Positions 959 to 27,400 of a DNA stretch of 32,712 nt are shown in pieces. Location of the stretch: NCBI GenBank assembly GCA_044869275.1, contig JBIOXB010000120.1, positions 1 to 32,712 of the forward strand. The letters run 5' to 3'. Each line of letters opens with the position of its first letter. Position 1 is the first letter of the stretch. The translations under genes were made by a program, and so were the position numbers. The notes beneath the pieces were generated by a model. It saw nothing but the letters and a program-made list of their open reading frames with translations. It searched no databases and had not been told where the DNA came from. The DNA comes from a bacterium. Its GTDB lineage: Bacteria; Zhuqueibacterota; Zhuqueibacteria; Zhuqueibacterales; Zhuqueibacteraceae.

Positions 959-2251
959 ATGCGCAAAACACTGGCCATGATTCTTGCCGGGGGACGCGTG
1001 GACGAGTTGTCGGTGCTCACGCAGTACCGCCCCAAATCCGCGGTACCCTTCGGCGGCCTGTATCGCGTCATCGACTTTCCCCTCAGCAACCTCATGAACT
1101 CCGGCATTGAGAACGCCGGCATCCTGTCGCAATACCGCTCCTTTTCATTGATCAATCATCTCGGCAACGGTTCCTCGTGGGAAATGGTGGGGCGCGATCG
1201 TGGCGTGAGCATTTTGCCGCCATACACCGGGCATTCATTGTCACATTGGTATCGCGGCAGCGCCGATGCGGTATTCCAGAATCTGGAATTCATACGCATG
1301 CACGATCCCGAGCTTGTGCTCGTGCTCTCGGGCGACCACATTTACTCCATGAATTATGGCCCGATGCTCAACTTCCATCGCGAAACCGGCGCGGATTTGA
1401 CCATGGGCTTCATCAAGGTGCAAAAAGAGCAGGCGCAGCGCTTCGGCATTGGCCGCATAGCCGGCGACAATCCCCTGGGTGGAAAATTGTTGGACTATCG
1501 CGAGAAGCCTGAAACCTGGCCGCGCTGGCCGGAGCAGGAAATGTGGGCCTCACTCACCATTTATATTTTCTCCCCGGCCGTGCTGTATGAGATTCTCAAG
1601 AAACACGCCGCGCTCGCCCCTGCTTCTTTTGAATTCGGCAAGGACATCATTCCCATGATGCTCGCCGACTACAACGTATTCGCCTACAAATATGAAGGCT
1701 ACTGGGGCTATACGCGCACCATCGACGAATACTGGCAAACCAGCATGGACATGCTCGGCGAGCACCCCAAAATCGCTCCGGAAAAATGGCGCGTGCGCAC
1801 GAACCTCGAGCATAATTCCACGCGCGACCGAGCACCGGCATTGATCGGCTCCACGGCTGAAATCGAAAACTCGCTGATTTACAGCGGCTGCCGCGTGCAC
1901 GGCACAGTCAAAAACAGCATTCTCTTTCCCGGCGTGGAAATCGCCGAAGGCGCGGTGATCGAAGATTCAATCTTGATGTTCGATACGCAAGTGCAAGCCG
2001 GAACGATACTCCACAAAGTCATTACGGATACGCACGTCGTGATCGGTGAGGAATGCGTGATCGGCAGGGGCGACGCGACGATTCCCAACGAGGAATTTCC
2101 GCATCTGCTCACCAGCGGCATCATGCTGATCGGCCAGCACGCGCGTGTTCCAGGCAAACGCAAAATCGGCAGCAATTGCATCGTGCACCCGGATTTGGTC
2201 GAAAGCCAGTTCCGGCAAATGGAATATGAATCGGGGCTGTCAATTAGATGA
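959..2251 (+). CDS. Glucose-1-phosphate adenylyltransferase paralog (divergent, possibly GlgD-like)
   Basis: KSAVPFGGLYRVIDF, WYRGSADAV, LSGDHIY, EKP, FGKDIIP and a C-terminal beta-helix. GGRVDEL replaces GGxGxRL and YWGYTRT replaces YWRDVGT. Confidence 0.85.
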   Translation: MRKTLAMILAGGRVDELSVLTQYRPKSAVPFGGLYRVIDFPLSNLMNSGIENAGILSQYRSFSLINHLGNGSSWEMVGRDRGVSILPPYTGHSLSHWYRGSADAVFQNLEFIRMHDPELVLVLSGDHIYSMNYGPMLNFHRETGADLTMGFIKVQKEQAQRFGIGRIAGDNPLGGKLLDYREKPETWPRWPEQEMWASLTIYIFSPAVLYEILKKHAALAPASFEFGKDIIPMMLADYNVFAYKYEGYWGYTRTIDEYWQTSMDMLGEHPKIAPEKWRVRTNLEHNSTRDRAPALIGSTAEIENSLIYSGCRVHGTVKNSILFPGVEIAEGAVIEDSILMFDTQVQAGTILHKVITDTHVVIGEECVIGRGDATIPNEEFPHLLTSGIMLIGQHARVPGKRKIGSNCIVHPDLVESQFRQMEYESGLSIR

Positions 2252-2268
2252 CAGCAAATGACAGAAGC

Positions 2269-2358
2269 TGGGTGAATGGAGTGCTGGATTGTGGGATTGC
2301 TGGAAAAGCATTGATCCAATAATCAAATACCCCAACTATCCATTCATCCACCAATCCC
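2269..2358. repeat. Inverted octamer tandem-repeat hairpin
   Basis: TGGAKTGY-like units (2269-2308) followed by complementary ...ATCCA units. Confidence 0.75.
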
Positions 2359-2380
2359 TTGCTCCAAGAGATCTCTTTTT

Positions 2381-3643
2381 ATGCGCAAAACCATCGCCAT
2401 GCTGCTCGCCGGCGGCGTGGGCAGCCGGTTGAATATTCTGGCGCACTATCGCGCCAAACCGGCGGTGCCCTTCGGCGGCTTGTATCGCATCATTGACTTC
2501 ACGCTGAGCAACGCCAAGAACTCCGGCCTGATCAATGTCGGCATTCTCACACAATACAAGCCGCTGTCGTTGATGGATCACATCGGCGACGGCCAGGCGT
2601 GGGATCTGATGGGCCGTATGCGCGGCGCGAAGATTCTGCCGCCACGCACGGGTGAGAGCGATTCGGATTGGTACAAAGGCACGGCCGATGCCATCCGCCA
2701 AAATACCAGCTTCATCCGGAATTTCAAATCCGAGCGCGTGGCGATTCTCTCCGGCGACCACATTTACCACATGGATTACAGCCGCATGATCGAGTTCCAC
2801 AAAAATCGCGGCGCAGATTTGACCATCGCGATGATGCGCGTGCCCCTGGAGCAAACGCGGCACTTTGGCATCGGTATCATTGACGGCCAGGATCGCCTCA
2901 TTGCTTGGGAAGAAAAACCCAAGCAGACGACAAGCAATCTCGCTTCGATGGGCGTCTACGTGTTCAATACCGATTTTCTGTTCCATTGCCTCAACACCAT
3001 CGCCGCGCACGATTTTGGCAAGGACACGATTCCCTATGCCATCCAGACGCACAAAGTTTACGCCTTTCCTTTCACCGGCTATTGGCGCGACGTCGGCACG
3101 TTGTATTCCTATTGGGATGCAAACATGGACATTTTGCGTCCCGATTCCGGCCTGCTTCTCGCAGATTGGAACATCTACACCAACTTGGAAGAAGAGGGCC
3201 GCGCCGGCGACCGCCCCCCCACGCGCATTCTCAAGGGCGCGCGCGTGGAAAACAGCTTTGTGGCACAGGGCTGCACAATTGCCGGGACGGTTACCAACAG
3301 CGTGTTGTCGCCCGGCGTCGCGGTCGGAAAGAATGCCGCGGTCGATCACTGCGTGATCATGCACGACTGCGCGATCGAAGAAAATGTGCAATTGTCCTAC
3401 GTCATTGCAGACAAACAAAGCCGCTTCAAACGGAACGCTCGCGCCGGTTTCGGCGACCATACAATTGCGAACCAGAAAACGCCGGAGCATTTGCAGGAAG
3501 GATTGACCTTGATCGGCAAGAATGCCGTGATTCCGGAGAACGTGCATCTCGGCAAAAATTGCATCATTCATCCACTCGTGAGTGAAGCACATTTTCCTAG
3601 CCAAGTCGTTGCGGACGGCACGACCATCGAGCTGTTCAATTAA
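2381..3643 (+). CDS. glgC: Glucose-1-phosphate adenylyltransferase (ADP-glucose pyrophosphorylase)
   Basis: Canonical LAGGVGSRL, RAKPAVPFGG, WYKGTADAI, LSGDHIY, EEKP, SMGVY, DFGKD and YWRDVGT motifs. Confidence 0.93.
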   Translation: MRKTIAMLLAGGVGSRLNILAHYRAKPAVPFGGLYRIIDFTLSNAKNSGLINVGILTQYKPLSLMDHIGDGQAWDLMGRMRGAKILPPRTGESDSDWYKGTADAIRQNTSFIRNFKSERVAILSGDHIYHMDYSRMIEFHKNRGADLTIAMMRVPLEQTRHFGIGIIDGQDRLIAWEEKPKQTTSNLASMGVYVFNTDFLFHCLNTIAAHDFGKDTIPYAIQTHKVYAFPFTGYWRDVGTLYSYWDANMDILRPDSGLLLADWNIYTNLEEEGRAGDRPPTRILKGARVENSFVAQGCTIAGTVTNSVLSPGVAVGKNAAVDHCVIMHDCAIEENVQLSYVIADKQSRFKRNARAGFGDHTIANQKTPEHLQEGLTLIGKNAVIPENVHLGKNCIIHPLVSEAHFPSQVVADGTTIELFN

Positions 3644-3664
3644 CTCAGGATCAGCGCAGCAACT

Positions 3665-6166
3665 TTGAAAGCCATCATCCTGGCCGGGGGCCTGGGCACG
3701 CGCTTGCGCCCCCTCACCCTGACTCGCCCCAAGCCGCTACTCCCCGTGGGCAACCTCCCCATTCTCACGCGTATCATTTTCTCTTTGCGCAAACAGGAAA
3801 TTCGCGACTTTCTCTTTCTGCTGCACTATCAACCCGAGCATTTCAAGCGGACCCTGGGCAATGGCCAGGCCTTCGACGCGCATTTCGAATACGTCGACCT
3901 CGAGCGGGATTTGGGCACGGCCGGCAGCGTGAAATATATCGGCGATCAAATTCGCGAAACCAGCCTGGTCTATTCCGCCGATATTCTCGCCGAAGTGCCG
4001 GTGCAGCGCATGCTGGACTTTCACCATCTCAAAAAATCATTGGTAACGATCGCCCTCTACCCCATGCCGGCGCCGCTGGCTTTCGGCATCGTGCTGCGCC
4101 GCGGCGACGGCAGCATTGCGCGCTTTTTGGAAAAACCCTCATGGCCGCAAGTGTTCAGCGATTGGATCAATTCCGCGATTTACATGATGGAGCCGGGGCT
4201 GGTCGAACATATTCCCAATCACGCGGCCTTTGCGATGTTCGAAAAGGAGGTGTTTCCGCCACTGGCTGCCGCGCACGCGCGCATCTTCGGTTTTCCATTA
4301 TACGGCTACTGGCGCGACGTCGGCACGCCGGAAGATTTGCGGCGGGCGAACATCGATTTCATTCGCGGTAATCTGCCCTTCGCCATGCTCACGCAGGCCG
4401 AAGCGGAACATATGCGCCTCGCCTCCGGCGCCAACGCACAGCATGATTTGTGGATCGGCGAAAACACCCGCTTGGCCGCGAAAGTCGTCATGCAGGAGAC
4501 CGTGATTGGCAAAAATTGCAGCGTCGCTGCAGGCGCAAGGATTTCGAGTAGCGTCATCGGCGACGAGGTTCAAATCGCAGAAGGCGCGCACCTCGAAGGC
4601 GCGATCATTATGGACAAGGTACGCCTCGGTCGCGGCGTGCGCCTGCAAGAAGATAGTTTGATCGGCGCAGGCGCCAGCATAGGTGCAACGGCAATTTTGC
4701 ACAGGAATGCCACGGTGAAGCCCGGAGGCCATATTGCGGAAGCGCGAGTGCTCAATCCGCAAAAAATTCTACCCACCGGCTACCTCCGCCGCTTTGTCGA
4801 TGGCGGCAATCTCTTGGGCTCGCCGCATGAAAGTTTTAATTTGGAGTTTTTGCATTGGGTGGGAAGGTCATTTGCCGCACAACAAAGCGGCAAGGGCGGC
4901 GCAGCCGATCCGTTCTTGTTAGCCACTGCCAGTCGCGAAGTTTTAGGCGATAGCTTCTGGGCACTGGCGCGAGGCCTCTCGGCTGGCGGCCGTGACCTGC
5001 ATCTGCTGGACAGCGTCACCTTGCCGATTGCCAGAAAACATCTTGCCAACAACCACTATGCCGGCGCGTTGTATGTCGGCTGGGAGGACTTTCTTGGATT
5101 GTTGCGAGTGGTGCCGTTACATCCCACTGGCGAGAATTTTTCCACTTTGGAAGCCTGTGCCCTGGAGCGCGCGGAGCTGCCGGAAGACCTGCACACTGGC
5201 GAACAACTGGATCTGGACGCTGCACCAGCGCGCGCAGATTATCTCAATGCCATGGCGGGGTTGCTTCCCAGCCTCGTCGCCCCCAAGAAATTCCTGGTCG
5301 GCGTGACCGGCAGCGCTTCGGAAACCATCTTGCGGAAGCTCATTGAAAGATTTCAATTGCCGGCCTGCGTGACCGCCTTGCCGCTCGAGGCGGGTTCCGG
5401 TTTCAAACATAAGGTCAAAGCCTTGCAGCAAAGCCTGGCCAGGAAATACCAAGAAGGTTACGATTTTGTTTTTTGGATGGGCTCATTCGGCGAAAGACTG
5501 CGCGTGATTCTGCCCGCGCAGGATGCCACGACTTTCGGCGTCAGCGACGTGGTGCTGGCGCAAATCTTGGCGAAGCGCTGGATAAAATCCTGGCCCATTG
5601 TCAACGGCTGGCTTATGCCGGAGACGAAATGGCGCAGCCCGCAAGCTCTCGCCACCGACTCCGCGCCGGTACTGACCGGGATGAACTCCAGCATGGTCAA
5701 GCTGGCGCAAAGATGCGGTTTTGCGAAGTGGTATGGCTTTGACGGCAATGGCGGCATTACCGTTTCCGAATGGATGAACTATCACGACGCCTTGATGGCG
5801 TTGGCGCACGTTCTGCCGCAGGTGGCAGGAAAAAATGCCCACAAGCTCGGGCGTGCGGCAGACAACCTATCGACCCGGCATCATCTCCTGCCTTGCCCGG
5901 ACGAGGCCAAGGCGCAAGTGATGCGCCGCTTGATCGAGAGCTTCGACGATCATGAATGCGAAGTCAACGACGGCGTGAAAATCAAATCCGCCACGGGCTG
6001 GGTGGTGGCGAGATTATGCGCGGGCCGCCCCGCGCTCGAGGTGTTCAAATTCTCGTGGCGCAGCGAAGCTGAAAAGGAAGATGAAATCGAGGCCTTGGCC
6101 GCGCGGGTATTGAGGAATCTCAATGAGTGGATTGCAGAGGTCGAAATGCACACCGGCCTCCCCTAA
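3665..6166 (+). CDS. NDP-sugar (mannose-1-phosphate guanylyltransferase-like) pyrophosphorylase fused to a degenerate phosphomutase-like domain
   Basis: ILAGGLGTRLRPLT..PKPLLP, LGTAG, EKP, YWRDVGT and hexapeptide repeats. The C-terminus has PGM/PMM-type remnants (CPDEAKAQVMRRL, DGVKI). Confidence 0.85.
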   Translation: MKAIILAGGLGTRLRPLTLTRPKPLLPVGNLPILTRIIFSLRKQEIRDFLFLLHYQPEHFKRTLGNGQAFDAHFEYVDLERDLGTAGSVKYIGDQIRETSLVYSADILAEVPVQRMLDFHHLKKSLVTIALYPMPAPLAFGIVLRRGDGSIARFLEKPSWPQVFSDWINSAIYMMEPGLVEHIPNHAAFAMFEKEVFPPLAAAHARIFGFPLYGYWRDVGTPEDLRRANIDFIRGNLPFAMLTQAEAEHMRLASGANAQHDLWIGENTRLAAKVVMQETVIGKNCSVAAGARISSSVIGDEVQIAEGAHLEGAIIMDKVRLGRGVRLQEDSLIGAGASIGATAILHRNATVKPGGHIAEARVLNPQKILPTGYLRRFVDGGNLLGSPHESFNLEFLHWVGRSFAAQQSGKGGAADPFLLATASREVLGDSFWALARGLSAGGRDLHLLDSVTLPIARKHLANNHYAGALYVGWEDFLGLLRVVPLHPTGENFSTLEACALERAELPEDLHTGEQLDLDAAPARADYLNAMAGLLPSLVAPKKFLVGVTGSASETILRKLIERFQLPACVTALPLEAGSGFKHKVKALQQSLARKYQEGYDFVFWMGSFGERLRVILPAQDATTFGVSDVVLAQILAKRWIKSWPIVNGWLMPETKWRSPQALATDSAPVLTGMNSSMVKLAQRCGFAKWYGFDGNGGITVSEWMNYHDALMALAHVLPQVAGKNAHKLGRAADNLSTRHHLLPCPDEAKAQVMRRLIESFDDHECEVNDGVKIKSATGWVVARLCAGRPALEVFKFSWRSEAEKEDEIEALAARVLRNLNEWIAEVEMHTGLP

Positions 6167-8846: not shown

Positions 8847-8924
8847 CTTCCCCATCTCCCACTCTCCCCGTCTCCCACTCTCCCCGTCTCCCACTCTCCC
8901 CGTCTCCCCATCTCCCCGTCTCAC
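8847..8924. repeat. Octamer tandem repeat (TCTCCCAC/TCTCCCCG)
   Basis: Nine consecutive 8-nt units, mostly alternating TCTCCCAC and TCTCCCCG, abutting the stop of the giant gene. Confidence 0.92.
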
Positions 8925-11900
8925 TTAACCACCGCCACCTTCGTCCTCACTGCGCCGCTGTTGGTCTTGAGCACGGCGACATAAACGCCGTTCAATACTT
9001 TGCGGCCACTGCCATTCAAGCCGTCCCAAGTGATGCCGGGCAAAGTGAGTGAGCCGCCACGTGCGCCGTGACTGCCCTGCCGGCCCTCCGGATCCGTGGG
9101 CAGGTATCTCGTTTTCCAGACCAGCTCGCCCAGCATGGTGTAAACCTCCAGAGCAACCTCCGAGTCTTTGGGCAGGAAATAAACGAACTGGGTTCCGGCG
9201 TCCGGCAACGGCCCGGCGCTCATGGGGTTGGGATAATTGAAAAAATTGTTGAATGAAGCGTCGACCAGCACCGCAAGGCTTGAAACGACTTTAAAATTCG
9301 AACCGGTGCGCCCGGCGGCATCGACCACGGTGACGAGCGAATCCGAATCCTGGTCACGCGCCACGACGTCGTTGCTGTGCTGAAAGCCAAGGCTGAACGC
9401 GCTCACCGAGTCGGTATCGGCCAAATCCGCCATCAAAGTCACGACATGAGAGGCGGTAAAACCTGGGCCCGAGAGGGGCAAGACCACGGGATTACCGGTT
9501 TGAAAAGACGTCAAATCCACGCTGCCGTATATCTGTGTGGGATCATCCGCCTTCACCAACCGCAACGCGCGCAACAGTGCACGCGGTGAAATATTGTTGC
9601 CGCTTTGATCCTTGACGTACACGTACATTTTTTCCAGCAGAATCATGTTGGCATTATCGCTTGCCCCCGTATTTTGCAGCTCCAGGTCGAGCACCGGCAG
9701 GCTGTTTTGCCCGCGCGCCACCGGTGACTGGCGATTGGTGTTTACCGCGTTGACAATCAAGCGTGTCTCTTGCACGATGACGTTGAATTGTGTACGCAGG
9801 GTATTGAAGCCCGCCGCTTGGTTGGTATTTTCGTCATTGGCCCGATCTTGCAGTTGCAAGACAAACTCTGCGCCGGTGGGATTGGGTGATTTGCGGTTCG
9901 GCGCCACCACCCACCACGAGGCACGGCGCTGCTTGCCCGCCGCGGCGCTGCTCTTGATCAAAGTCGTATCGACACGGCGATCCAGAGTATAGCCTTCCGG
10001 CAGAATCAGCAGAATGCTGTCCGGTCCTACGGCTTGGGCGTCTCCAAGATTGTTCAAAACCGCCGAGACTTCGAAGCTCTGTCCGGTGCTCACCACGCGA
10101 TCGCGCGCGGCAGCGGGCGCCGTCACTTCTCCGCTGAAGACAAAATCGGCGCGGCGCACGAATTTCAGCGCGACGGAATCGACCGCGGCAGGCAAGGCAT
10201 AATCCGGATTGCTGGCATCTGTGGCCATCACCTCCACGCGAAAGACCGCGCGCTCAAAAGCTTGCGAGGCCGCTCTGACCTTCCAGTAGGCAATTCTGCC
10301 GGTTTCGGCGTTGGGATCGGTGAAGATCACTTCCAAATCATCGTCCAAGGGTTCCGGCAGGAAACCCAGACCGGGAGGCAAAATCAGTTTTGCTTTCACC
10401 GGCGCGGCGCGCAGCCACGCCACGTTGGCGCTGAGCGTGAAGATTTGCTCCGTGCTCAAAGTGCTGTCCTTTGCACCCTCAGGCTCGAACACTTGTACGT
10501 CGCTCACCGCGAGGGAGCCATGATCTTCGGTGCTGACGTCGAAATTCACCACGCGCAGCAAGATGCTGGGCTCGGCATCCGTGTTTTCGTCCTTTGGAAG
10601 CCGGGTGACGGTGAAACGCAGTTGCTGGCCAAGGGATACCGTATCCGGCGCGCGCGCGCTCCAAATCACTTCGCCGGTATAAGCATCTGGCGGAATCACC
10701 AGCGTTTGCTCCAGTGGCTCGATCACGGTGATGCCGGTGTTGCCCAGGTCCAGGCTCACGCTCGCCGTGTCATAGGTTTGGGCTGCGCCACCGTTGCTCA
10801 ATTTCGCGCTGATTTTGAAATTCTGCCCGAGGGCCAGTCTGCCGCCCGCCGCGCCCGGCGGATCGATGAAGGCCGGTATCAAAGTCAGGCTCGCGCGCGA
10901 TTCTGCTTGCACCAGTGTGGACAGACTCGACGGCGGCAAAGGCTGGCCGCCGGAATCCCGGCCGGAAACCAAAACCTTCAGCTCCACCTGCCCATCGGCG
11001 CTGCTCGGCGCGCGCACCTGCCATGCCACGGAGTCTCCGGCCACGGTTTTCTCCGCCGAGTCGCCCGGCGTGAGACGGTAGCCGCCCGCCAGCTCGAGTT
11101 TTGCCGTCGCGGTCGCCACGTTCGCGCTGCGGTTCAATTTGGCAACGACTAGAAAAGTTTGTTCCGTGGATACCACGTTGTCGCGCGCGCCTTCGGGCCC
11201 GCCAATGAACACGCTGCGCACGGAGAGCGCCGAAGAGCTCACGCCCACCACCAAATTGGCAGGATTGCTGTTGACCACTTGCGCCGGCGCGCCGCTGTTG
11301 CGATCGCGCGGGATGGGAGACATCGTGATTTGAAATACGTCACCCTCCGAGGTCTGATCCGGCGCAGTCGCCTGCCAGACTACGGTTGTGCCTTGTGAAA
11401 ACGATTTGGGAACATTATTGCTGACAGTGTATCCCGTAGCCGGAACCGCGGAAATGCGCAACTGGCCATTGTCGGCATAGGGTGCGCCGCCGCGATTCAG
11501 CACGCGTGCGCGAATCTCGAAATCCTGGCCCAAGGTCAATTGATTGTCCGGCGCGCTGGTTTCGACTTGAATTTCGAGCTGCGCCGGCCTTTGTACCTGC
11601 ACTTTCACCGAGTCATTGTTGATCGGCCGGCCGATATTTCCCGCCGTAGTCAGGGTGCGCACCGAGTCGATGCGCACTTTGAAAACCTCAAAATCGCCGT
11701 TCAAGCTTGGAGTATTGGCGGCACGAATTGTAAAAGCTCCCTCCCGCACGCTTTGCGTGGGGATGTTTCGAATCGTATCCTGCGCCGTAACGATTTCTGT
11801 GCCGCCGTTCACGGAAGTTTTTTCGATGGAAACCGCGGCCCATTCCACATCTTCAAAACCGAGATTTTGCACGCCGACTTTGATGAGGAATTCCTGATTC

Positions 11901-14900
11901 GTATTCACGAAGCCGATAATGCCGTTCGTGTTGGCGCCTTCGGCAAAGCCCGCACTCACAATGGAGGCGACGGTCTGGGTGAGAACTAGAACGATTTTCT
12001 GGCCCTCGGCGGGGAGCAGGCGCAAATCGTTCACATCCCGGCCGTCCACATTCACACTCACCGACAATTCTCCGCCCTGGCTGCCGGTCCTATCCACAAC
12101 GTAAATCAAAGTATCGATGCTGCCGCTACGCAGGCGCAGGCTGCCACTTTGCGAAAATCCGGCAGGCTTGTTGATGAAATAGTCCGTCGCAGGCGCGCCG
12201 CTGATGGAGAGATTCAAATCTGGAATCGAGTCCAGCACCACGTCCGCGGCATTGTCAGCCGCGCGCAACGCCACAAAAACTCTCCAGTCCGCGGTTTGCA
12301 GCGCCGCCACCGCATCCTGGGACAAGTCCGTAGTGACCTCGAGCTGTTCCAAAGAGGCCGGATTGTTGACGTAAAGCTGGGCCGTGTTGTCCACGTCCCC
12401 GAGCAGCATGGCTTCAGCCTTAGTATTACTCGCGACTGAGGAATCGATGAACGCCGTAAACGTTTCGCCGGCCAGGTTTCTCACCGCAGCCGCGGTGAGA
12501 TCGAACACGGCAGAATCGCCCACGGCTGCCACGACGTTATTCGCAATATCGGAACTGCCATCACCAGCCAGTCGTACCCATACCCTGTCAAGCCCCTCTT
12601 CGCCGCGATTCTGGTATTTGACTCGAACTTGAAAAGGCTGGCCCGTATTGACGCTGTCGCCATTGAAAACTTGCGCCAATTTCGTTTCGATGATCCCGAT
12701 CTGCGCAGGTGTTTGCACCGTCACGCTCGTGTCTCTGGCATTCGTGCTGAATAAGCGGTCGCTATTGACCTCCATGACGTCAAGAATGCCTGAGACAATT
12801 TTCTCGCCGGTGCTCTGGCCGGACTGGTCCACGGTGAACATCAGAGAACGAGTGCTGCCGCCTTGAATGATGTCGCGTGGCAGCCCGTCGACCAGTGCCG
12901 TGTCCGGGATCACGCCGTCCTCCGGGAAATCCCCGATGGCAACCAGAGGCGGCGAATCACGGAACAACACCTGCACCTCGCTGCCGCCGGTATTGGTGAT
13001 ATTCATCATCACTCGCCAATCTTGCGTTTGATTTTGGGTGACGAATGGCTGCGAGGGCGCCAGAGTGAGGTTCAATGCGGCCGGCGTCTGCACGACAAAA
13101 CGGCCTTGTGTTCCCGGCGAATTGGCCACATGGAATTCGCTTTCATTTTCTGCGTTCGTGGTGCGTACAACAGCGACAATGGCAGCCGTGCCGATGAGAT
13201 TTCCGGTTCTTATGACCTTGAATTTCAGCGAATCGGTACTATTGGCAGCCATGGTCACAAATCCGCCGCCGGTCGAAAACGCAGTAGGCTCTTGAATGTC
13301 ATAATCGTCCGGTTGCCCGTTGACAACGATCTGCTCAATATTGGCGGAATGGAACCTCAATGCGAAACTGTTATTGTTGCGCACCGCCACATCAATGAAC
13401 CACTCCTTAACCATGTTCTGCGTAACGGTAGCCTGGCTGGGAGTAATACTCAAGATTTCGAAGGGCGCTCCTTCTCCCACTTGCACAGGTTCGACGAGGA
13501 ACGAATTCTCGAGAAATGGCGCGCCATTGTGTGTGCCGGCAATGACGATATTCGGTTGATATGAAGTCTGCGGAAATTCGTTTGGTATATTCGTGGATTG
13601 AAAAGTGATCGTGGTGTCGCCCGACATGATCGTACGCACACTGTTTGCGTCCAGCTTGGCGATATACGAGTTGGTGCCCGCATCCAGACGGAGAGAAGTA
13701 GCGTCCGGGTTCAAGAGTAGCGGGGCATTGCCGGCGTTATGCACGCGCAGGCTGAAGCGATAGGAACTACCCACACTGACGTTCTGCGGGCTCAAAGTGC
13801 CGGCAATATAACTGAGCGCCGGCGCCTGTTGCACAAAAATGGAATCGATTTGGTCGGCGCCAGTATCGCCGATATCGTTCGGGATGAGAACCTCTGCCAG
13901 CGCCGTGCCGTCAATGATAAATCCTCCTCCGTTCTTATCGGCGGCATACGCAATGTTGAACAGAACATTGAGCGTTTGGAAATTGCCTGGAACGAGGGTG
14001 CCCGCGGCAGGAGAAATTCGCGTCACAACAAAATCCGGCGAGGCCCCGAAGGGCGAGATGACGTCAAAAGACAAATTCGCTTCGGAGAATTTGATCGGAT
14101 CCCGGCCGACGTTCTGCAGCACCATGGTGACGGGAATATTCGCCTGCCCCGTGGACATGGTATCGCGGCCGGCTTGAATGCTCAGAATGCGCAATTGATT
14201 GATGCTGAGGGAAATGCTGCCGCTGGCCGCGCCGCTGCTGCCGCCGGTCACGGAAATCGTCGCCGTGCCGCCGTTGCGGCCGGCTTGGAAGATGAAGGAA
14301 ATATTGCTTGTGAGATTGGTCTTCACTTGCAAGCCCGGCAGGGTAATATCCTGATCTGCGGAAATGATTTTGCCCAGGCTGGTGTCGTTTACGGCCACTG
14401 TCAACAGCTTGTTCGCGCCGACTGGGTTGCCCTGCTTGTCTTTAATCGATTGCGAAGTGGAAACTCTCGTGGTGTCATTGTTATTAGCTGGCAGCTTAGA
14501 TTTTGTAGCGTGCAAAAAAATATCGCCGTAAGGCTCGCCGCTGGACTCTATCGTGAAAGGAGGGGATAAGCCCGGGCCATCCTTGGTATTGTTAAGACTG
14601 CTTTGCGTTTCCACGCTCAATTGAAAGTTGCTTCCGGGTGTGGTGGTATTGGTTACCAGCGAAAAAAAGACTCCGACTTGGCCGCCAGGCGGCACCGTCG
14701 TGCCGGAGTCGTCCCGCTTTAATTTCAAATCGCGGCCGGAATTGCTTTCAACTTGCAGTCCACCCGTCGCTCCTAACTCGAACGAAGCAACGCTGACCCC
14801 CGAGAGATCAAAATCAAAGCCGGTGGGGAATTTGATCAAAATTTTATCCGTCAGTGCAAGACCGGAAGACGCGGTAAAGCGCACACGATAGGTCGCCGGC

Positions 14901-15097
14901 TTGCCGGCGGTTTTCGGAGCCGGGAGGACAGAGTTGACGATAACGGCTTGCGCGCCGGCGATTTGCGGCAAAAACCAGGCAGAAAATATTCCGGCCAGCA
15001 TGGGCTGGCGCCACTTCTTATGAAAAAAAATCGCTCGCCTTTTTTTCTCGTCACAGCCCTTCTGCCAAAACCAATGCCCAATGGAAGACTTCATCAT
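8921..15097 (-). CDS. Giant secreted Ig-like repeat protein with FlgD-Ig/T9SS-type C-terminal sorting domain
   Basis: ~2060-aa ORF with a signal-like segment ending ...AGAQ. About 13 repeats of 'VSTGQ.F.V...(L/V).N.G'. C-terminus FFNYPNP...WDGLNGSG..VLNGVY...KVAVVK. Start uncertain (15103/15097/15094/15001). Confidence 0.88.
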   Translation of the reverse strand: MMKSSIGHWFWQKGCDEKKRRAIFFHKKWRQPMLAGIFSAWFLPQIAGAQAVIVNSVLPAPKTAGKPATYRVRFTASSGLALTDKILIKFPTGFDFDLSGVSVASFELGATGGLQVESNSGRDLKLKRDDSGTTVPPGGQVGVFFSLVTNTTTPGSNFQLSVETQSSLNNTKDGPGLSPPFTIESSGEPYGDIFLHATKSKLPANNNDTTRVSTSQSIKDKQGNPVGANKLLTVAVNDTSLGKIISADQDITLPGLQVKTNLTSNISFIFQAGRNGGTATISVTGGSSGAASGSISLSINQLRILSIQAGRDTMSTGQANIPVTMVLQNVGRDPIKFSEANLSFDVISPFGASPDFVVTRISPAAGTLVPGNFQTLNVLFNIAYAADKNGGGFIIDGTALAEVLIPNDIGDTGADQIDSIFVQQAPALSYIAGTLSPQNVSVGSSYRFSLRVHNAGNAPLLLNPDATSLRLDAGTNSYIAKLDANSVRTIMSGDTTITFQSTNIPNEFPQTSYQPNIVIAGTHNGAPFLENSFLVEPVQVGEGAPFEILSITPSQATVTQNMVKEWFIDVAVRNNNSFALRFHSANIEQIVVNGQPDDYDIQEPTAFSTGGGFVTMAANSTDSLKFKVIRTGNLIGTAAIVAVVRTTNAENESEFHVANSPGTQGRFVVQTPAALNLTLAPSQPFVTQNQTQDWRVMMNITNTGGSEVQVLFRDSPPLVAIGDFPEDGVIPDTALVDGLPRDIIQGGSTRSLMFTVDQSGQSTGEKIVSGILDVMEVNSDRLFSTNARDTSVTVQTPAQIGIIETKLAQVFNGDSVNTGQPFQVRVKYQNRGEEGLDRVWVRLAGDGSSDIANNVVAAVGDSAVFDLTAAAVRNLAGETFTAFIDSSVASNTKAEAMLLGDVDNTAQLYVNNPASLEQLEVTTDLSQDAVAALQTADWRVFVALRAADNAADVVLDSIPDLNLSISGAPATDYFINKPAGFSQSGSLRLRSGSIDTLIYVVDRTGSQGGELSVSVNVDGRDVNDLRLLPAEGQKIVLVLTQTVASIVSAGFAEGANTNGIIGFVNTNQEFLIKVGVQNLGFEDVEWAAVSIEKTSVNGGTEIVTAQDTIRNIPTQSVREGAFTIRAANTPSLNGDFEVFKVRIDSVRTLTTAGNIGRPINNDSVKVQVQRPAQLEIQVETSAPDNQLTLGQDFEIRARVLNRGGAPYADNGQLRISAVPATGYTVSNNVPKSFSQGTTVVWQATAPDQTSEGDVFQITMSPIPRDRNSGAPAQVVNSNPANLVVGVSSSALSVRSVFIGGPEGARDNVVSTEQTFLVVAKLNRSANVATATAKLELAGGYRLTPGDSAEKTVAGDSVAWQVRAPSSADGQVELKVLVSGRDSGGQPLPPSSLSTLVQAESRASLTLIPAFIDPPGAAGGRLALGQNFKISAKLSNGGAAQTYDTASVSLDLGNTGITVIEPLEQTLVIPPDAYTGEVIWSARAPDTVSLGQQLRFTVTRLPKDENTDAEPSILLRVVNFDVSTEDHGSLAVSDVQVFEPEGAKDSTLSTEQIFTLSANVAWLRAAPVKAKLILPPGLGFLPEPLDDDLEVIFTDPNAETGRIAYWKVRAASQAFERAVFRVEVMATDASNPDYALPAAVDSVALKFVRRADFVFSGEVTAPAAARDRVVSTGQSFEVSAVLNNLGDAQAVGPDSILLILPEGYTLDRRVDTTLIKSSAAAGKQRRASWWVVAPNRKSPNPTGAEFVLQLQDRANDENTNQAAGFNTLRTQFNVIVQETRLIVNAVNTNRQSPVARGQNSLPVLDLELQNTGASDNANMILLEKMYVYVKDQSGNNISPRALLRALRLVKADDPTQIYGSVDLTSFQTGNPVVLPLSGPGFTASHVVTLMADLADTDSVSAFSLGFQHSNDVVARDQDSDSLVTVVDAAGRTGSNFKVVSSLAVLVDASFNNFFNYPNPMSAGPLPDAGTQFVYFLPKDSEVALEVYTMLGELVWKTRYLPTDPEGRQGSHGARGGSLTLPGITWDGLNGSGRKVLNGVYVAVLKTNSGAVRTKVAVVK

Positions 15098-15149
15098 TTC
15101 CAATTGCTCAATAGATGTCGTGCGAGATGAATGAAATTGTCGTCATGCA

Positions 15150-15192
15150 ATTTCAGAATTCGAATTCACGAAAGAATTACGGCCTGGGACAA
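15150..15192 (-). promoter_or_regulatory. Conserved palindromic leader box, copy A
   Basis: ATTTCAGAATTCGAATTCAC-N5-AATTAYGGCCKGGGAYAA, shared with 16396-16438. Core palindrome GAATTCGAATTC. Confidence 0.6.
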
Positions 15193-15361
15193 TCTCCGCT
15201 TCAGGCTGGAACAATCGGCCTCTTTTCGTGAGGCCATGCGCAATCTGTTGCGGGCATCATGTAAAGACAATGCGGCCAAATTAATGCACTTGGCCGTCGC
15301 GATGATGCAGCACAATGAATTCGAGTGTTTCGCCCCAAACAATCCGCGCTCGGCATAAGAA

Positions 15362-15378
15362 GTACAAAGTTCATACCA
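15362..15378 (-). promoter_or_regulatory. sigma54-like promoter, copy A
   Basis: Minus strand TGGTATGAACTTTGTAC (GG-N10-GT; the consensus has GC). Identical to 16608-16624. Confidence 0.55.
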
Positions 15379-15540
15379 GCGCAGAATGCGTTGCTGTCAT
15401 AAATTACGCCTCGCGTCATGCGTAAGGCCTAAAACGTGATGCGTAAAAAAAATTTTCGTTTTTTTGGTAGGATGCCAACACTACAGGCTGAGTCGATGCC
15501 ACCACCAGAAAATGCCATTCAGCCTGCGTTGAAACCAAGT

Positions 15541-15567
15541 GTTTTCATACAGGCTGATTCCTTCTGA
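15541..15567 (-). promoter_or_regulatory. Upstream conserved box (candidate enhancer), copy A
   Basis: GTTTTCATACAGGCTGATTCCTTCTGA, 23/27 identical to 16686-16712. Confidence 0.5.
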
Positions 15568-15659
15568 ATGACAGTTCAGGAAGTGGGTAGGAAAATTAAG
15601 GTGACAGAATAGTAGTGTTAGGCCAAGATTACGAATGCAACGGAGATTGATAGCATCCA

Positions 15660-15714
15660 CAAACAAAAAGGCCATGGCCGCCTTCGAAAAATCCCGAAAG
15701 CGCCTATGGCCTTT
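15660..15714 (-). terminator. Probable intrinsic terminator downstream of the 163-aa gene
   Basis: Minus strand AAAGGCCAT...ATGGCCTTT stem followed by TTGTTTG. Confidence 0.55.
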
Positions 15715-15823
15715 CAATGCAACCGTACGCCTAACGTTTTACGGTTGAGGTTTTATGTTTTGCCTCCGCTCCTGCACGGCCTTTTCGCTCACCACAGCTC
15801 TTCTGAATGACCTCGTTGATTCC

Positions 15824-16315
15824 TTACTTTTGCGCTGGGCCACGCTGAAACTCGATTTTGGTTTTTTGCATCACCGGCAGGGCCGCGGAAAGCGCCGGCC
15901 TCACTTGCACGTTGATTTGATAATCGCCTTCCAGATTGCCAGGGTTCATGATCGCGCCCAGGCGCAAGCGCACCGGAGTGTTGGCGGCCACGCGCACACC
16001 AGCGCCCGAGCGTTGCGCGCGCACGCGTTGCTCCTCGCGCGTGAGCATGAATCCGCCGGTCATGTCCGGCGAGCCGGCGACCATCAGCGTGGTCAGATCA
16101 AAATCTGACGGAAACTCCAGCACAAATTCGGCGTCCGCTTCCAGGACCTGCGGCGAGGTGATCGTGACTTCGTACACCGAGGGCTGATTCGCTTCCGCAC
16201 GCAAGGCTTGCAAGCGGAATGAAGGAACCGGTGCAGTCTGCGCGAAAGCCGAGGCCGAAAAAGCGAGCAACAATCCTGAGAGCAGGAGGCGCGTGCTTGA
16301 AAATTTCGAAACCAT
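15824..16315 (-). CDS. Secreted single-domain beta protein, paralogous to the N-terminal domain of the giant protein
   Basis: Sec signal peptide (..ASAFA|Q) and GGAG RBS. Motif-by-motif similarity to residues ~65-166 of the giant ORF. Confidence 0.82.
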   Translation of the reverse strand: MVSKFSSTRLLLSGLLLAFSASAFAQTAPVPSFRLQALRAEANQPSVYEVTITSPQVLEADAEFVLEFPSDFDLTTLMVAGSPDMTGGFMLTREEQRVRAQRSGAGVRVAANTPVRLRLGAIMNPGNLEGDYQINVQVRPALSAALPVMQKTKIEFQRGPAQK

Positions 16316-16395
16316 GAGGTTACTCCAATGACGTAAAAATTTTCAACGATTGCTTTGGAAGTGTATTGGTTTTGTTCTTTTGCTGTGACAGCACG

Positions 16396-16438
16396 ATTTC
16401 AGAATTCGAATTCACAATACAATTATGGCCGGGGATAA
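16396..16438 (-). promoter_or_regulatory. Conserved palindromic leader box, copy B
   Basis: First 20 bp identical to 15150-15169, with similarity continuing to 43 bp. Confidence 0.6.
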
Positions 16439-16607
16439 AACGTGCATCATCATGGCACATGCGGCCTTTTTGCACGCGCGGCATGCGTGCGGCGCGACAG
16501 CCTCATGAAAAACAACATGGCTGCGCCGCTCGCCTCGATCGTCACGTGAATGTGGCTTGGCGAATGTTAAGGCTTAGCCGTATAACCGGTCGCGCTCAAC
16601 GCGAAAT

Positions 16608-16624
16608 GTACAAAGTTCATACCA
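16608..16624 (-). promoter_or_regulatory. sigma54-like promoter, copy B
   Basis: Minus strand TGGTATGAACTTTGTAC, identical to copy A. Confidence 0.55.
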
Positions 16625-16685
16625 AAAGCTGAAACGCAGAGCGTTTCAATAGGCATCACGACGCCAAGCTTCCAAACGAGAGCTC

Positions 16686-16712
16686 GTTTTCACAGAGTCT
16701 GAATCCTTCTGA
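16686..16712 (-). promoter_or_regulatory. Upstream conserved box (candidate enhancer), copy B
   Basis: GTTTTCACAGAGTCTGAATCCTTCTGA, 23/27 identical to copy A. Confidence 0.5.
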
Positions 16713-16808
16713 CATGTAAATGACTATGCAAGAATGAACCGTGCCGAGCGTAGAGTCCGGATGAACAAATGGAAGGGGAAAGTGTGAAGAAAAACTTGCA
16801 GAAGTTGA

Positions 16809-17219
16809 TCAACGAAACATGGCTTTGATGCTGCCCCAGGTCGCGCGCGCGCCGGAGATGATGGGATTGACTTCGATGACGTTCGTGGTTGTGGCCGCGC
16901 CGTCTTTGTCCACGATTTTCAAACGATAATAGTACACCCGGCTTTCGGCTTTGAAAACGGTGTTGTCTTCGTAAACATACTCCGTTTTCGCCGTGGCGTG
17001 GCCTTTGGCATCCAGAAAATCGATTTTTTGCAGGTCGGTTTTGCTGATGCCGCGCTCGATCTCGAAGCCCTTGAGATTGATCTCGGCCTCGGCCAGCCAT
17101 TTCAAAGTGACTTTATTGCGGCTGGGCTCGGCGCGAAATTCCGACACGATCGCGCCCGCGGATAAAACCGAGGCCAGGCTGGCGCAAAACACGAGACTGT
17201 AAAACCAAAGCTTACGCAT
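16809..17219 (-). CDS. Small secreted FN3/Ig-like protein with C-terminal TWGSIK motif
   Basis: Signal peptide, then the V.LKW...E.N.KGFEIER...YVYED...YYYRLK.VDKDG pattern. Ends TWGSIKAMFR. AAGGA RBS. Confidence 0.85.
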   Translation of the reverse strand: MRKLWFYSLVFCASLASVLSAGAIVSEFRAEPSRNKVTLKWLAEAEINLKGFEIERGISKTDLQKIDFLDAKGHATAKTEYVYEDNTVFKAESRVYYYRLKIVDKDGAATTTNVIEVNPIISGARATWGSIKAMFR

Positions 17220-23892: not shown

Positions 23893-23934
23893 ATGATCAA
23901 TTGATCATTGACAATTGCCAATGAGGAATCGGCA
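23893..23934. repeat. Degenerate heptamer tandem repeat (ATTGACA-like)
   Basis: ATGATCA ATTGATC ATTGACA ATTGCCA ATGAGGA ATCGGCA, immediately after the yjbQ stop. Confidence 0.55.
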
Positions 23935-24356: not shown

Positions 24357-24373
24357 GTCGAGCCAGCTCCAAA

Positions 24374-24480
24374 CGGAGTGTTGGAGTGATGGATTATTGG
24401 ATCAATGGATCATTGAAAAATGACTTCCTCCATCAATCCAACACTCCATTAATCCAACACTCCAACACTCCATCAATCCA
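24374..24480. repeat. Inverted octamer tandem-repeat hairpin
   Basis: Five TGGAKTRW-like units (24374-24413) and seven ACACTCCA/TCAATCCA-like units (24425-24480). Same family as 2269-2358. Confidence 0.88.
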
Positions 24481-24481
24481 T

Positions 24482-27400
24482 TTACATCACAATCAGTTTT
24501 TTCACCGCCTGAAATTTTCCCGCATTCATGCGATAGAAATAGACGCCCGCCGCCACACGCCCGCCGCGCTGGTCGAAGCCGTTCCATTTCACCGCATAAA
24601 AGCCGGGCTCCTGGCGCTCGTCGCGCAAGGTTTGCACAAGCTGGCCGAGCATGTTGTAGACGCGAATCGTGACCTGGCCGGGTTCCGGCAGCGCGTAGCT
24701 GATCGTCGTTTGGGCGTTCGTGCCGGGCTGGCGCTCATGCGCGGCAAAGGGATTGGGATAATTTTGCTGCAGCGAGAAAGTCTGCGGTACGGCACCGGCG
24801 GCCAATTCCACCAAAGCAAAAGCGCCACTTTCAAAAGTGCCCTCGCCGCGGAAGAATTTGGTTTCGGCCTCGAATTCCTGCGCCACTTCATGCCGCCAGA
24901 TTTTGAAGCGCATCGGCGTGCCGGGCTCGTAGCCGGCAATCGGTGCAGAGGCACCGGAGATTTTTCCCTCCGCGCGCCACGTCGCGATGCCGAGCGCGCC
25001 CTGTGCGGGCCACAAGCCCGCGCCCACAAGTTCTCCGACGGCGGTAAAAACCCCAATCTCGTCGCCGGCTTTAAGCGAGATATTGTTTATCTTCGCCGCT
25101 TGTACGACCACGATGTAGCTGTCGCTGCTCCGCCGCAGGCCGGTAAAATGTTTGGGCGCGGCAGTGGGCGTTGCCAGCATCTGCTTGCCCAAACCGCTGG
25201 CGGTCGGGCCCAGCGGATAAACCAGCGTGTCCGGTGCATTCAAATAAAGCTTGTAGCCCGCGCCGGGTTTCAAATCGCCGATGCTGTTGAGCATGCCAAC
25301 CGCCGGGATGAAAAATTGCCCGGCGTCGTTCTTCGCGATTTCGAGTTTGTCGAGAATGGCCACCAAAGCCTGCGCGGCCGGAACGTTCGCGCCCGGCAGG
25401 TAGCTCACGAAGTTCCATCCCGCTTGCAAGGGAATCGGCGTGAACGGCGGAACTTCTTCGCCGCTGATGGTCGCGGAATCGTGAGCCGCGAGATAAACGC
25501 TGTAGCCTTCCAAGGTGTTCAACGCACCAATGGTATTCACCAAGCCGGGAATATAAGCCTCGCCCGCGCCGTTCTTGGCAATTTGCAGTTGTTGCGTACC
25601 TGCAAACACGGCCTCCATACTGGGATTCTCGGGCTGCACATTGAAGCTGATCCAGCTCCAATTCGCCGCGAGCTGTTTGCTGCGCGTGAAATTCGTTTGC
25701 GCGGCGAGGGCGGAGACGTGCGCTGAATCCGCGGTGCCAAACTTGCCATCGCCCCGAATGAAGCTCGCCATTGCCGGATAATCGCGATTGTTGCGGCTGC
25801 TATCCCACACGCGGAAATACATGGTCTCGCCCGAAGCGAAACCATCGATTTTCGGCGTGCCCGGGTCATCGCCAAACGCCAGCAAGCGCGCCGGCGTGTT
25901 GCGCTGCCACACCACGGTGCCCGCGAGTTTGCCGGCGGGTGTGAACACGCCGATCTCGTCGCCCGTGGCGAGCGGTGCATTGTTGAGGGTCGCCTGGTCG
26001 ATGCGGATCACGTATCGCACCGCGGTTTTGTCAATGGGCGGAAAATGAATCGTCGAATCGCCCACGGCCAGCACTTCCAACAAAAGCTGCACCGCAACGC
26101 TGGGCTCGTCAAAATCGTTGCTTTCAATGCGCAGCTCGGCAACATAAGTTGAATCCGGTTGCAGGCCGGCCGCATTGAAATGCACCTGGATATTCTCCAG
26201 GCTGGTGCTGTTGACCACGCCGGTTCTCGGCGCGTAGCTCAGCCAGCTCGCCGGGCGTTCAATCTCGACCGCCAGATTGTTCTGCACATAATCGGTGTTG
26301 AAGGCCACTTCAACGCCGTCCGAGCCGTCGTGATTTTGAATGCCAATGGTGGCGAAGTTGCTCGGTGCGCCGGTTTGCAGATATTGAAAACGAATATTGC
26401 CGTTCGGTGTAAGCATGATTTGAAACGTGAACGGCGTGCCTCCGCCCGCGCGCTTCACGTTGTGCCATTGCACAATCAACTTGTGGCCATCGCTGAAATA
26501 ATACACCGCGCCACTGCGCGCGTCGAGATCATCCCAAAATCCCGCGATGACATCGAAAAGTCCATCGCTGGGAAGGGGATTGTTGCTGAAGGCGCTGGAA
26601 CGGCTGGTAAATGAAATGAAGCCGTTACTGCACACGCGAAACTTGGTGAAAACGGAATCATAAAAAGGGAACGCAAAGCCGATATTGAAAGGCCCGACGT
26701 TGTCATCGTCGCCGACGTCCAGAACGCGCGTGCCCTGGGTTGAAATATCTTCCCAGTCGAACTCTGGGCCTTTGGGATCGTTGTTGTCGCGCCAAATGTA
26801 GCCGAAAAGATCCGGGCCGCCGTGTCCTTGCACCTGCGGCATGCCCTGCCGTAAATCAGCCTGGTCCTTGGCGAGCGAAGCGCCATAATAAGACTCCGGA
26901 TAAACCGCGGTATGGACGGCTGCATTTTGAAATTCCGGCGGCACGATTCGAACGCGATAAAACAAATCGCCCACGCCCAGATTGTGGATGCTGAAGCCAC
27001 GAGCGGTGGAATCACCCTCGAATAGCTTCAGCGTCATGGCCGTGGGTGTGATCGCGATATCCGGGGGTGCGAACACCTCGAGGCGAAGATCATCCACGAA
27101 CCAATCGTCGCGGTCCTCGGCGCCAATGTTACGAATGCGCAGGCGGAAATTACGATGGTATGCGGCCGGCGGCAGCGCCGTTTCACTGCGCGTGAAGAAT
27201 GGCAGGCCGCCCTCGCTGCCGGGATGGCGCGCCAATTCAATCCAATTGTTTTGCGCGTCGCGGAACTCGAACACCAGATCGTCGCCGGTGTCCGGCTCTT
27301 CGCCGCTGCCGGTTTGCTCGAAATAATAGGTCAACGCCACCGCATTTTCACCGGAGAGGTCGATCGGCACAGTTTGCACCACGCTGCCGCCGGGCAAATT

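Follow-up and report, generated by a model that had tools for sequence, protein, structure and literature searches.

Two neighboring minus-strand genes in a 32,712-nucleotide stretch of DNA (contig JBIOXB010000120.1 of assembly GCA_044869275.1; hereafter the window), one encoding a protein of 163 amino acids (aa; 15824-16315) and the other a giant protein of 2060 aa (8921-15103), are each preceded by a copy of what, judged by its sequence, is a variant sigma-54 promoter, truly duplicated and kept under selection, with a predicted activator site downstream. In the reading we favor, to which we assign a probability of roughly 0.6, each gene has its own likely sigma-54 promoter and would be controlled by an NtrC-family activator acting from a 17-bp palindrome within the leader. 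If this is true, the genes for the small protein and for its giant, presumably surface-located neighbor would be transcribed separately under one signal; in sister genera they form a single operon. The window is contig C120 of genome G000 (6.67 Mb), and the class comparison set comprises 125 genomes.

The predicted promoters coincide with a 17-bp box (box 2) present in two identical minus-strand copies (17/17), copy A at 15362-15378 before the giant gene and copy B at 16608-16624 before the small gene, the latter orthologous to the single promoter of sister genera. Both carry TGG at -26/-24 and TTG at -15/-13 with fixed spacing, in sense orientation upstream of a gene. From the -24/-12 geometry, transcription would start on the minus strand at 15352 and 16598, giving predicted leaders of about 255-283 nucleotides (nt), in line with the ~250-280 nt proposed in a preliminary description of this DNA. 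The sequence TGGTAYGRACTTTGT is retained in 18/18 leaders of the clade, which come from genera g1, g3 and g4 and from four metagenome loci (a metagenome scan yielded four loci only), while mid-leader identity is only 39-65%. The canonical C at -12 (GC) is replaced by T in all 18 leaders, which makes this a variant promoter, with GT at -13/-12. At more distant homologous loci a sense sigma-54 motif is found in 52 of 59 cases (51 GC, 1 GT) and an antisense one in 1. The promoter spacer bases GAAC are kept in 17/18 clade leaders, more than sigma-54 should need.

We scanned G000 for TGGYAYR-N4-TT in sense intergenic positions, using our own gene calls (4,826 genes). The motif ended in GA 27 times, GC 24 times, GT 19 times and GG twice, the other 12 dinucleotides occurring 1-5 times each; antisense control counts were 3, 3 and 2, and inspection of genome G003 by eye revealed the same mix. 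The -12 base of these predicted promoters is relaxed, with GA, GC and GT used about equally and GG avoided, so that a standard scan for GC would overlook 46 of the 70 candidate promoters of G000, about two thirds. Against a background of 4.9%, both GC (5/24, p 0.006) and GA (4/27, p 0.042) promoters are more often close to activator genes. The genome has a single rpoN match, encoding an intact 489-aa RpoN with an RpoN box, and 46 PF00158 activator domains. Around the QQ..LL motif, the first region of this RpoN departs from its enterobacterial counterpart. With 18/18 conservation in the clade, an intact rpoN, 46 activator domains and GT a normal -12 variant here, the assignment of box 2 to sigma-54 made in the preliminary description is supported, and sigma-54 very likely uses the GT variant at this box. 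At L070 (1727 and 2753), both promoter copies share two base changes not seen in the G000 and G001 copies, possibly through gene conversion or co-adaptation.

The second shared element is a 17-bp pseudo-palindrome at 15197-15213 (copy A) and 16443-16459 (copy B), on the minus strand and at +140 to +156 of both leaders. The preliminary description had not singled it out: it had placed a conserved palindromic element in the leader at a different repeat, box 1. That a DNA element is conserved inside the leader proved correct; the element conserved across the class is the 17-mer, which lies beside box 1 and about 28 bp promoter-proximal of it. De novo motif search at 42 distant loci recovered TGTWTC-N5-GAWACA downstream of the promoter (13.4 bits versus 8.9 in shuffled sequence) and no shared upstream regulatory motif, the best upstream motif (15.4 bits) being coding sequence of the preceding gene. 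We built a site matrix from 32 of those 42 loci, none of which belongs to this clade; it puts the 17-mer at the top of 1128 positions in 17/18 clade leaders, both window copies among them, the miss being copy A of G001. We read the window 17-mers as a diverged form of the class-wide site. Of the 17 loci withheld from training, ten contain the site too (11.6-20.7 bits), and all ten have a variant promoter motif. Among the 52 distant loci with a promoter, the site lies downstream in 42 and upstream in 7; four loci of family f2 have it upstream of the same gene's promoter and none downstream. When the 125 genomes were searched with a strict pattern derived from those loci (promoter, gap of 30-60, site), 20 of the 21 matches fell before the small gene and the reversed control gave 0; G000 itself has no match to the pattern.

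Site position is held neither to the promoter nor to the start codon: it ranges from +34 to +213, with distant loci at +34 to +52 and +150 to +175 and this clade at +134 to +213. Offsets taken modulo 10.5 by hand are scattered over the helical turn, and we claim no phasing. Clade sites score 7.5-16.6 and the window copies 9.5. The inverted repeat TGT-N9/11/12-ACA is present in the class consensus; in the window the copies have GCG and GCA as their last three bases and are nonetheless the top-ranked positions of their leaders. A second half-site lies at 18-20 bp in most distant loci; neither it nor a tandem site is recognizable in the window copies. Sites of bacterial enhancer-binding proteins (bEBPs) usually lie at least 100 bp upstream; at +140 the window copies are not conventional upstream activating sequences. 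In the clade the 17-mer belongs to a conserved block that reads, in order, A-tract-G(A/G)CCG, TGT-N7-TGAAGCA, 15-17 nt, TAAT. The first part of this block (15216-15227, minus strand; the CGGCCT island of the preliminary description) lies 5' of the 17-mer and is possibly a degenerate second half-site. The GTAAT island (15176-15181, minus strand) follows 15-17 nt past the 17-mer in 18/18 clade leaders, and a mid-leader A/T-tract (15250-15266, minus strand; the former TCATG island) is a possible bend element. A site for integration host factor (IHF) is common, though not required, between a bEBP enhancer and its promoter; matches to the IHF consensus were seen by eye in three leaders of genus g2.

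What might bind this site? One G000 activator gene, C49:3836-5230, stands out by conservation: compared with five families, the last 95 aa of its product are 80-87% identical, the next best reaching 58-70%. It was found in 113/125 genomes, at 79-96% over the last 79 aa, and an orthologue has the NtrC-family architecture of a receiver, an AAA+ domain and a Fis-type helix-turn-helix. In 28 of the 30 best-scoring among the 113 activator loci, the matrix, whose training loci were small-gene leaders, finds the site upstream of the sigma-54 motif before the following gene, at a distance of 60-200 bp (99-130 in nearly all); 18/30 have tandem sites. Shuffled sequence predicts 1.6 loci with a site versus the 28 found. 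At one such locus (L285), the first 13 bases of the upstream site beside the candidate activator are identical to window copy A. On this comparative evidence it is quite probable that the 17-bp palindrome is a bEBP site, and probable that the C49 protein is the cognate of its ancestral form; for the diverged window copies, the odds that C49 is the cognate are only somewhat better than even. If the palindrome is a bEBP site, it probably activates instead of blocking. At L273-L302 the neighbor gene driven by this sigma-54 motif is unannotated, with no Pfam family over cut-off.

Two other activators deserve mention. The C52 activator was rejected as cognate: close orthologues exist in only 13/125 genomes (E below 1e-23), and promoter plus site was found in 0/9 orthologous regions compared. 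Its operon (C52:3414-5317; L136), which holds Hpt and activator genes behind the same promoter-plus-site layout at offset 64, is more likely an occasional target; the polysaccharide gene cluster adjoining it has its own sigma-54 motif. C95:1985-3650 encodes a second well-conserved activator, without a receiver domain, with its own sigma-54 motif and a 17-mer-like site ~220 bp upstream, and is an alternative cognate candidate.

In the mechanism we propose, polymerase carrying sigma-54 would wait as a closed complex at 15378-15364 and 16624-16610 until the phosphorylated activator, bound at +140 to +156, loops back and drives opening; the bound activator would then be displaced or passed by the transcribing polymerase. 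Several observations weigh against this. Taken by themselves, GT promoters show no significant proximity to activator genes (3/19, p 0.064). Of the 52 promoter-bearing distant loci, 10 lack a downstream site, and as many as 32 of the 42 sites that are present helped to train the matrix. The clade sites have G at position 15 in 18/18 cases, where A occupies 95% of the class matrix, and copy A of G001 scores only 1.5/4.0, at rank 2; the G and the lower scores mean that another activator may read the clade sites. The flanking elements A-tract-GACCG, GTAAT and box 1 are left without explanation by an enhancer model, and the IHF consensus has 5 exact matches around the 70 candidate promoters and none in the window leaders. 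On the activator side, 31/46 activators of G000 and 85/105 from five other genomes entered the comparison, the 30 activator loci are those with the best scores among 113 and include kin that are not independent, and in G000 no site scoring at least 8 lies near the C49 activator gene, nor was the neighbor target gene found there. Finally, the single promoter of L069 indicates that copy A is dispensable in one lineage.

The strongest competitor keeps the same sigma-54 promoter and makes the 17-mer a repressive roadblock or operator, for the same activator or another dimeric regulator, with activation coming from other sites. The 17-mer does lie within the transcribed region, further motifs are conserved upstream of the promoter in genus g2, several f6/f15 sites overlap the apparent start codon, and in many other loci the second half-site abuts the ribosome-binding site. 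We nevertheless consider a roadblock unlikely and prefer activation, because the same motif occupies the textbook activating position elsewhere (28/30 activator loci), because it lies upstream of the same gene in the four f2 loci, because its position shifts between +34 and +213 relative to both promoter and start codon, and because some loci have almost no non-coding room upstream: by eye, the non-coding stretch before the promoter measures just 15 bases at L100 and 31 at L093. The distant loci also lack a common upstream regulatory motif from which activation could come. The start codon overlap was seen at L053-L057, L059, L102, L104, L112-L114, L117-L119 and L121, where the first codons would double as site.

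A second possibility is that the 50-bp block is another promoter, of the sigma-70 family (TGAAGC, 14-16 nt, GTAAT), with box 1 starting its transcript. The block resembles the layout of extracytoplasmic function (ECF) promoters, its 17-mer-to-TAAT spacing is a rigid 15-17 nt in 18/18 leaders, and box 1 starts 6 nt past TAAT. Against this, the housekeeping motif of G000 is TTGAC/TTGC-N17-TATnnT, there is no enrichment of TGAA upstream of CGTA or GTAAT in G000, the block has no counterpart elsewhere in the genome (30 and 29.5 bits; next 16), and the class-wide palindrome to which the 17-mer is homologous lacks a GTAAT partner. We regard this second promoter as very unlikely, and return to sigma-54 activation from the leader as the preferred reading.

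How the giant gene came by its own promoter can be followed in relatives. In genera g3 and g4 a single promoter precedes the small gene, and only a short spacer separates that gene from the giant one; in G000, G001 and L070 the giant gene is preceded by a second copy. Both upstream and mid-leader, the A copies are more alike among themselves than they are like B copies, which suggests a single duplication. Leader A is chimeric: its last 40 bases are the ancestral spacer as found in single-promoter relatives, and the small/giant spacer with its ribosome-binding region (15104-15140, minus strand) forms its 3' end. A single-gene tree (139 columns, 49 rows; L133 left out, having no match) separates the C120-type clade (95/88) from the C14-type and places L069, which has a single promoter, as sister to G000 (100/90). 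Comparison of these loci places a single duplication on the genus stem, by which the giant gene acquired a promoter of its own. We dropped the idea that L069 retains the ancestral single-promoter state, as the tree nests it among duplicated genomes, and its single promoter is best read as a later loss. In G001, the small and giant genes are separated by a gene (L062:6385-9009) for an 874-aa repeat protein that has a sorting-like tail and looks RCC1-like by eye, and another repeat insertion, ~295 bp long, extends leader A.

The loss of copy A in L069, nested among genomes having it, and the degenerate copy A site of G001 would fit a neutral tandem-duplication remnant, with the giant gene read through from promoter B. 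The promoter motif is, however, 15-17 of 17 intact in three A copies versus a mid-leader identity of 56-65%, and read-through would have to pass a predicted intrinsic terminator 3' of the 163-aa gene (15664-15714, minus strand; hairpin of -32.1 kcal/mol plus U-tract), also found before copy A in G001 and L070, and in G001 the intervening 874-aa gene as well; we judge a neutral remnant very improbable. Least probable of all is a structured cis-regulatory RNA, one of the options in the preliminary description, largely refuted even though predicted leaders are long and 3/18 blocks, all of one subclade, have a local hairpin (z about -2.6 to -4.0): covariation is no better than in shuffled alignments (307/500 reach it), RNAalifold predicts 0 pairs on the 18 blocks, Rfam finds nothing in the window and 8 weak sub-threshold hits at 15 related loci, none in a leader, the central positions of the palindrome vary without compensation, and the site also occurs upstream of promoters.

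The repeats that first drew attention to this region are real. Box 1 is 20/20 identical between copies (15150/16396), extending to a 43-bp motif with 37/43 identities, box 3 is 23/27 identical (15541/16686), and the small islands CGGCCT (15216/16462), TCATG (15257/16503) and CGCGCTC (15345/16591) are all present; ungapped identity between box 1 and box 2 is only 59/169. At up to 3 mismatches in G000, box 1 occurs only at the two window places; at up to 2 mismatches, box 2 occurs there and as one 16/17 match on contig C163. The preliminary description took the shared 1246-bp offset of boxes 1 and 2 for exactly conserved spacing. The equal offset is not gap-free conservation, because the pairwise alignment from box 2 to box 1 holds four one-base gaps that cancel, and the promoter-to-site distance varies: in seven copies from the same genus it is 165, 165, 164, 163, 163, 159 and 164, and two sister genera have distances of 192-238. 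These gaps and distances exclude exact spacing as a constraint. Box 1 itself (15150-15169 and 16396-16415, minus strand) is an A/T-rich segment conserved at genus level: among seven same-genus copies it is identical in three, 79-95% identical in three and lost in one, and it is absent in genus g3.

Box 3, which had been suggested as a movable upstream enhancer, is an unrelated repeat, and ordinary. Copy A lies in 15511-15575, one end of a dispersed element with 151 blastn hits on 88 contigs, and copy B (16686-16712) is an isolated end of the same family. Genome-wide, the 20-bp core marks 245 ends, 243 of them non-coding, forming 95 inverted pairs of which 50 are 87 bp apart. Such ends lie within 350 bp of only 4/70 candidate sigma-54 promoters, two being those of the window, and are absent upstream of the A copies in G001 and L070. 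We take the element to be a dispersed inverted repeat of the REP/REPIN (repetitive extragenic palindromic) or MITE (miniature inverted-repeat transposable element) type, which it resembles in being ~130 bp long, non-coding and multicopy with inverted ends, and from which it differs in that the window retains single ends only.

The 163-aa protein has a signal-peptide-like N-terminus and one predicted domain, belongs to no Pfam or NCBIfam family, and has homologues in 107/125 class genomes, often directly 5' of a giant open frame. Its structural model is a confident beta-sandwich (pLDDT 85) with only generic Ig/cohesin-like matches (TM-score up to 0.51); its Atlas neighbors are unnamed, and the nearest named cluster, BslB at 0.90, is a lead only. 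The giant gene, with ATG at 15097/15094, encodes a predicted secreted or surface protein whose last 159 aa match a type A sorting-like domain of the type IX secretion system (T9SS; TIGR04183, 28.2 bits, cut-off 23), the whole protein scoring under the cut-off. The two genes had been called paralogous. The 163-aa protein is indeed homologous to the giant's first domain (25% over 106 aa, E 2e-5); the match is confined to that domain, and the homology is far older than the promoter duplication.

Upstream lies a real gene of 136 aa (16809-17219, minus strand); the overlapping open reading frame 16690-17100 was discarded as an off-frame artefact. Elsewhere in the window we note short intergenic repeats, 8-bp-period tandem and inverted (684-749, 2269-2362, 8849-8928, 23895-23917 and 24372-24484), and nucleotidyl-transferase genes with hexapeptide domains (959-6166), three in tandem, the first two sharing 71% DNA identity over 211 nt. 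A paralogous operon in G000 (C14:33592-46850; L134), which counts among the more distant homologous loci, comprises a second small gene and a 4202-aa gene and keeps the ancestral layout, with a GC promoter, the 17-mer at offset 64 and the second half-site next to the ribosome-binding site.

Taken together, our findings predict, for an uncultured lineage, a regulator, the site it would bind and its target, a conserved surface operon. The duplication itself is ordinary. A bolder synthesis is tentative and, in our view, rather doubtful: a KSB1-class master activator would control the giant surface-protein operon from inside the transcript (+34 to +213, in some families in the first codons) with a sigma-54 lacking -12 C specificity, and in this clade the site would have changed a base, gained GTAAT and box 1 for a second partner, and been copied as a portable promoter-plus-enhancer cassette.

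Activator sites in unusual places are known from other bacteria. For Pseudomonas aeruginosa FleQ, a 2002 report by Jyot et al. has, to go by its title, one activator with sites upstream or downstream of the RpoN site. That system differs from the present one in lineage, motif and targets. FleQ sites lie close to the transcription start, those described here up to ~200 bp in. In Bacillus subtilis, the rocG promoter is said, by the title of a 1999 report by Belitsky and Sonenshein, to be a sigma-54 promoter driven from an enhancer beyond the gene, unlike the enhancer predicted here within the leader.

Activators generally bind upstream, with a bending protein (PMC6524683), and sigma-54 is tied to the cell exterior (PMC3162934, title). 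Natural -12/-11 variants in Bradyrhizobium and Rhodobacter are linked to several rpoN copies (PMC3162934), unlike here, where there is one rpoN match and three -12 bases are about equally used genome-wide. A literature search thin on subscription journals found, among the papers listed, none joining KSB1 and sigma-54, and KSB1 has 0 occurrences in the consulted part of a cross-phylum regulon study (PMC12316311); its class logos, and the logos and site tables of PMC4641369, may bear on the novelty of both the motif and the relaxed -12 base.

The closest parallel is the DVU1063 system of Desulfovibrio vulgaris (PMC4641369), in a set where bEBP motif groups read TGT-N9/11/12-ACA and the few sites 40-70 bp downstream belong mostly to DVU1063. 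Both systems combine a sigma-54 promoter with a TGT-N11-ACA palindrome, downstream sites, three-half-site arrangements and surface-related targets, the likeness of motif being one of geometry. They differ in that the downstream position here is the rule for one operon across a class, at +134 to +213 in the clade, that some families overlap the apparent start codon, and that the target is a giant T9SS-tailed protein in place of flagella. Reaching beyond the 40-70 bp of PMC4641369, the positions from +34 to +213 form a natural series in which activation inside the path of the polymerase could be tested.

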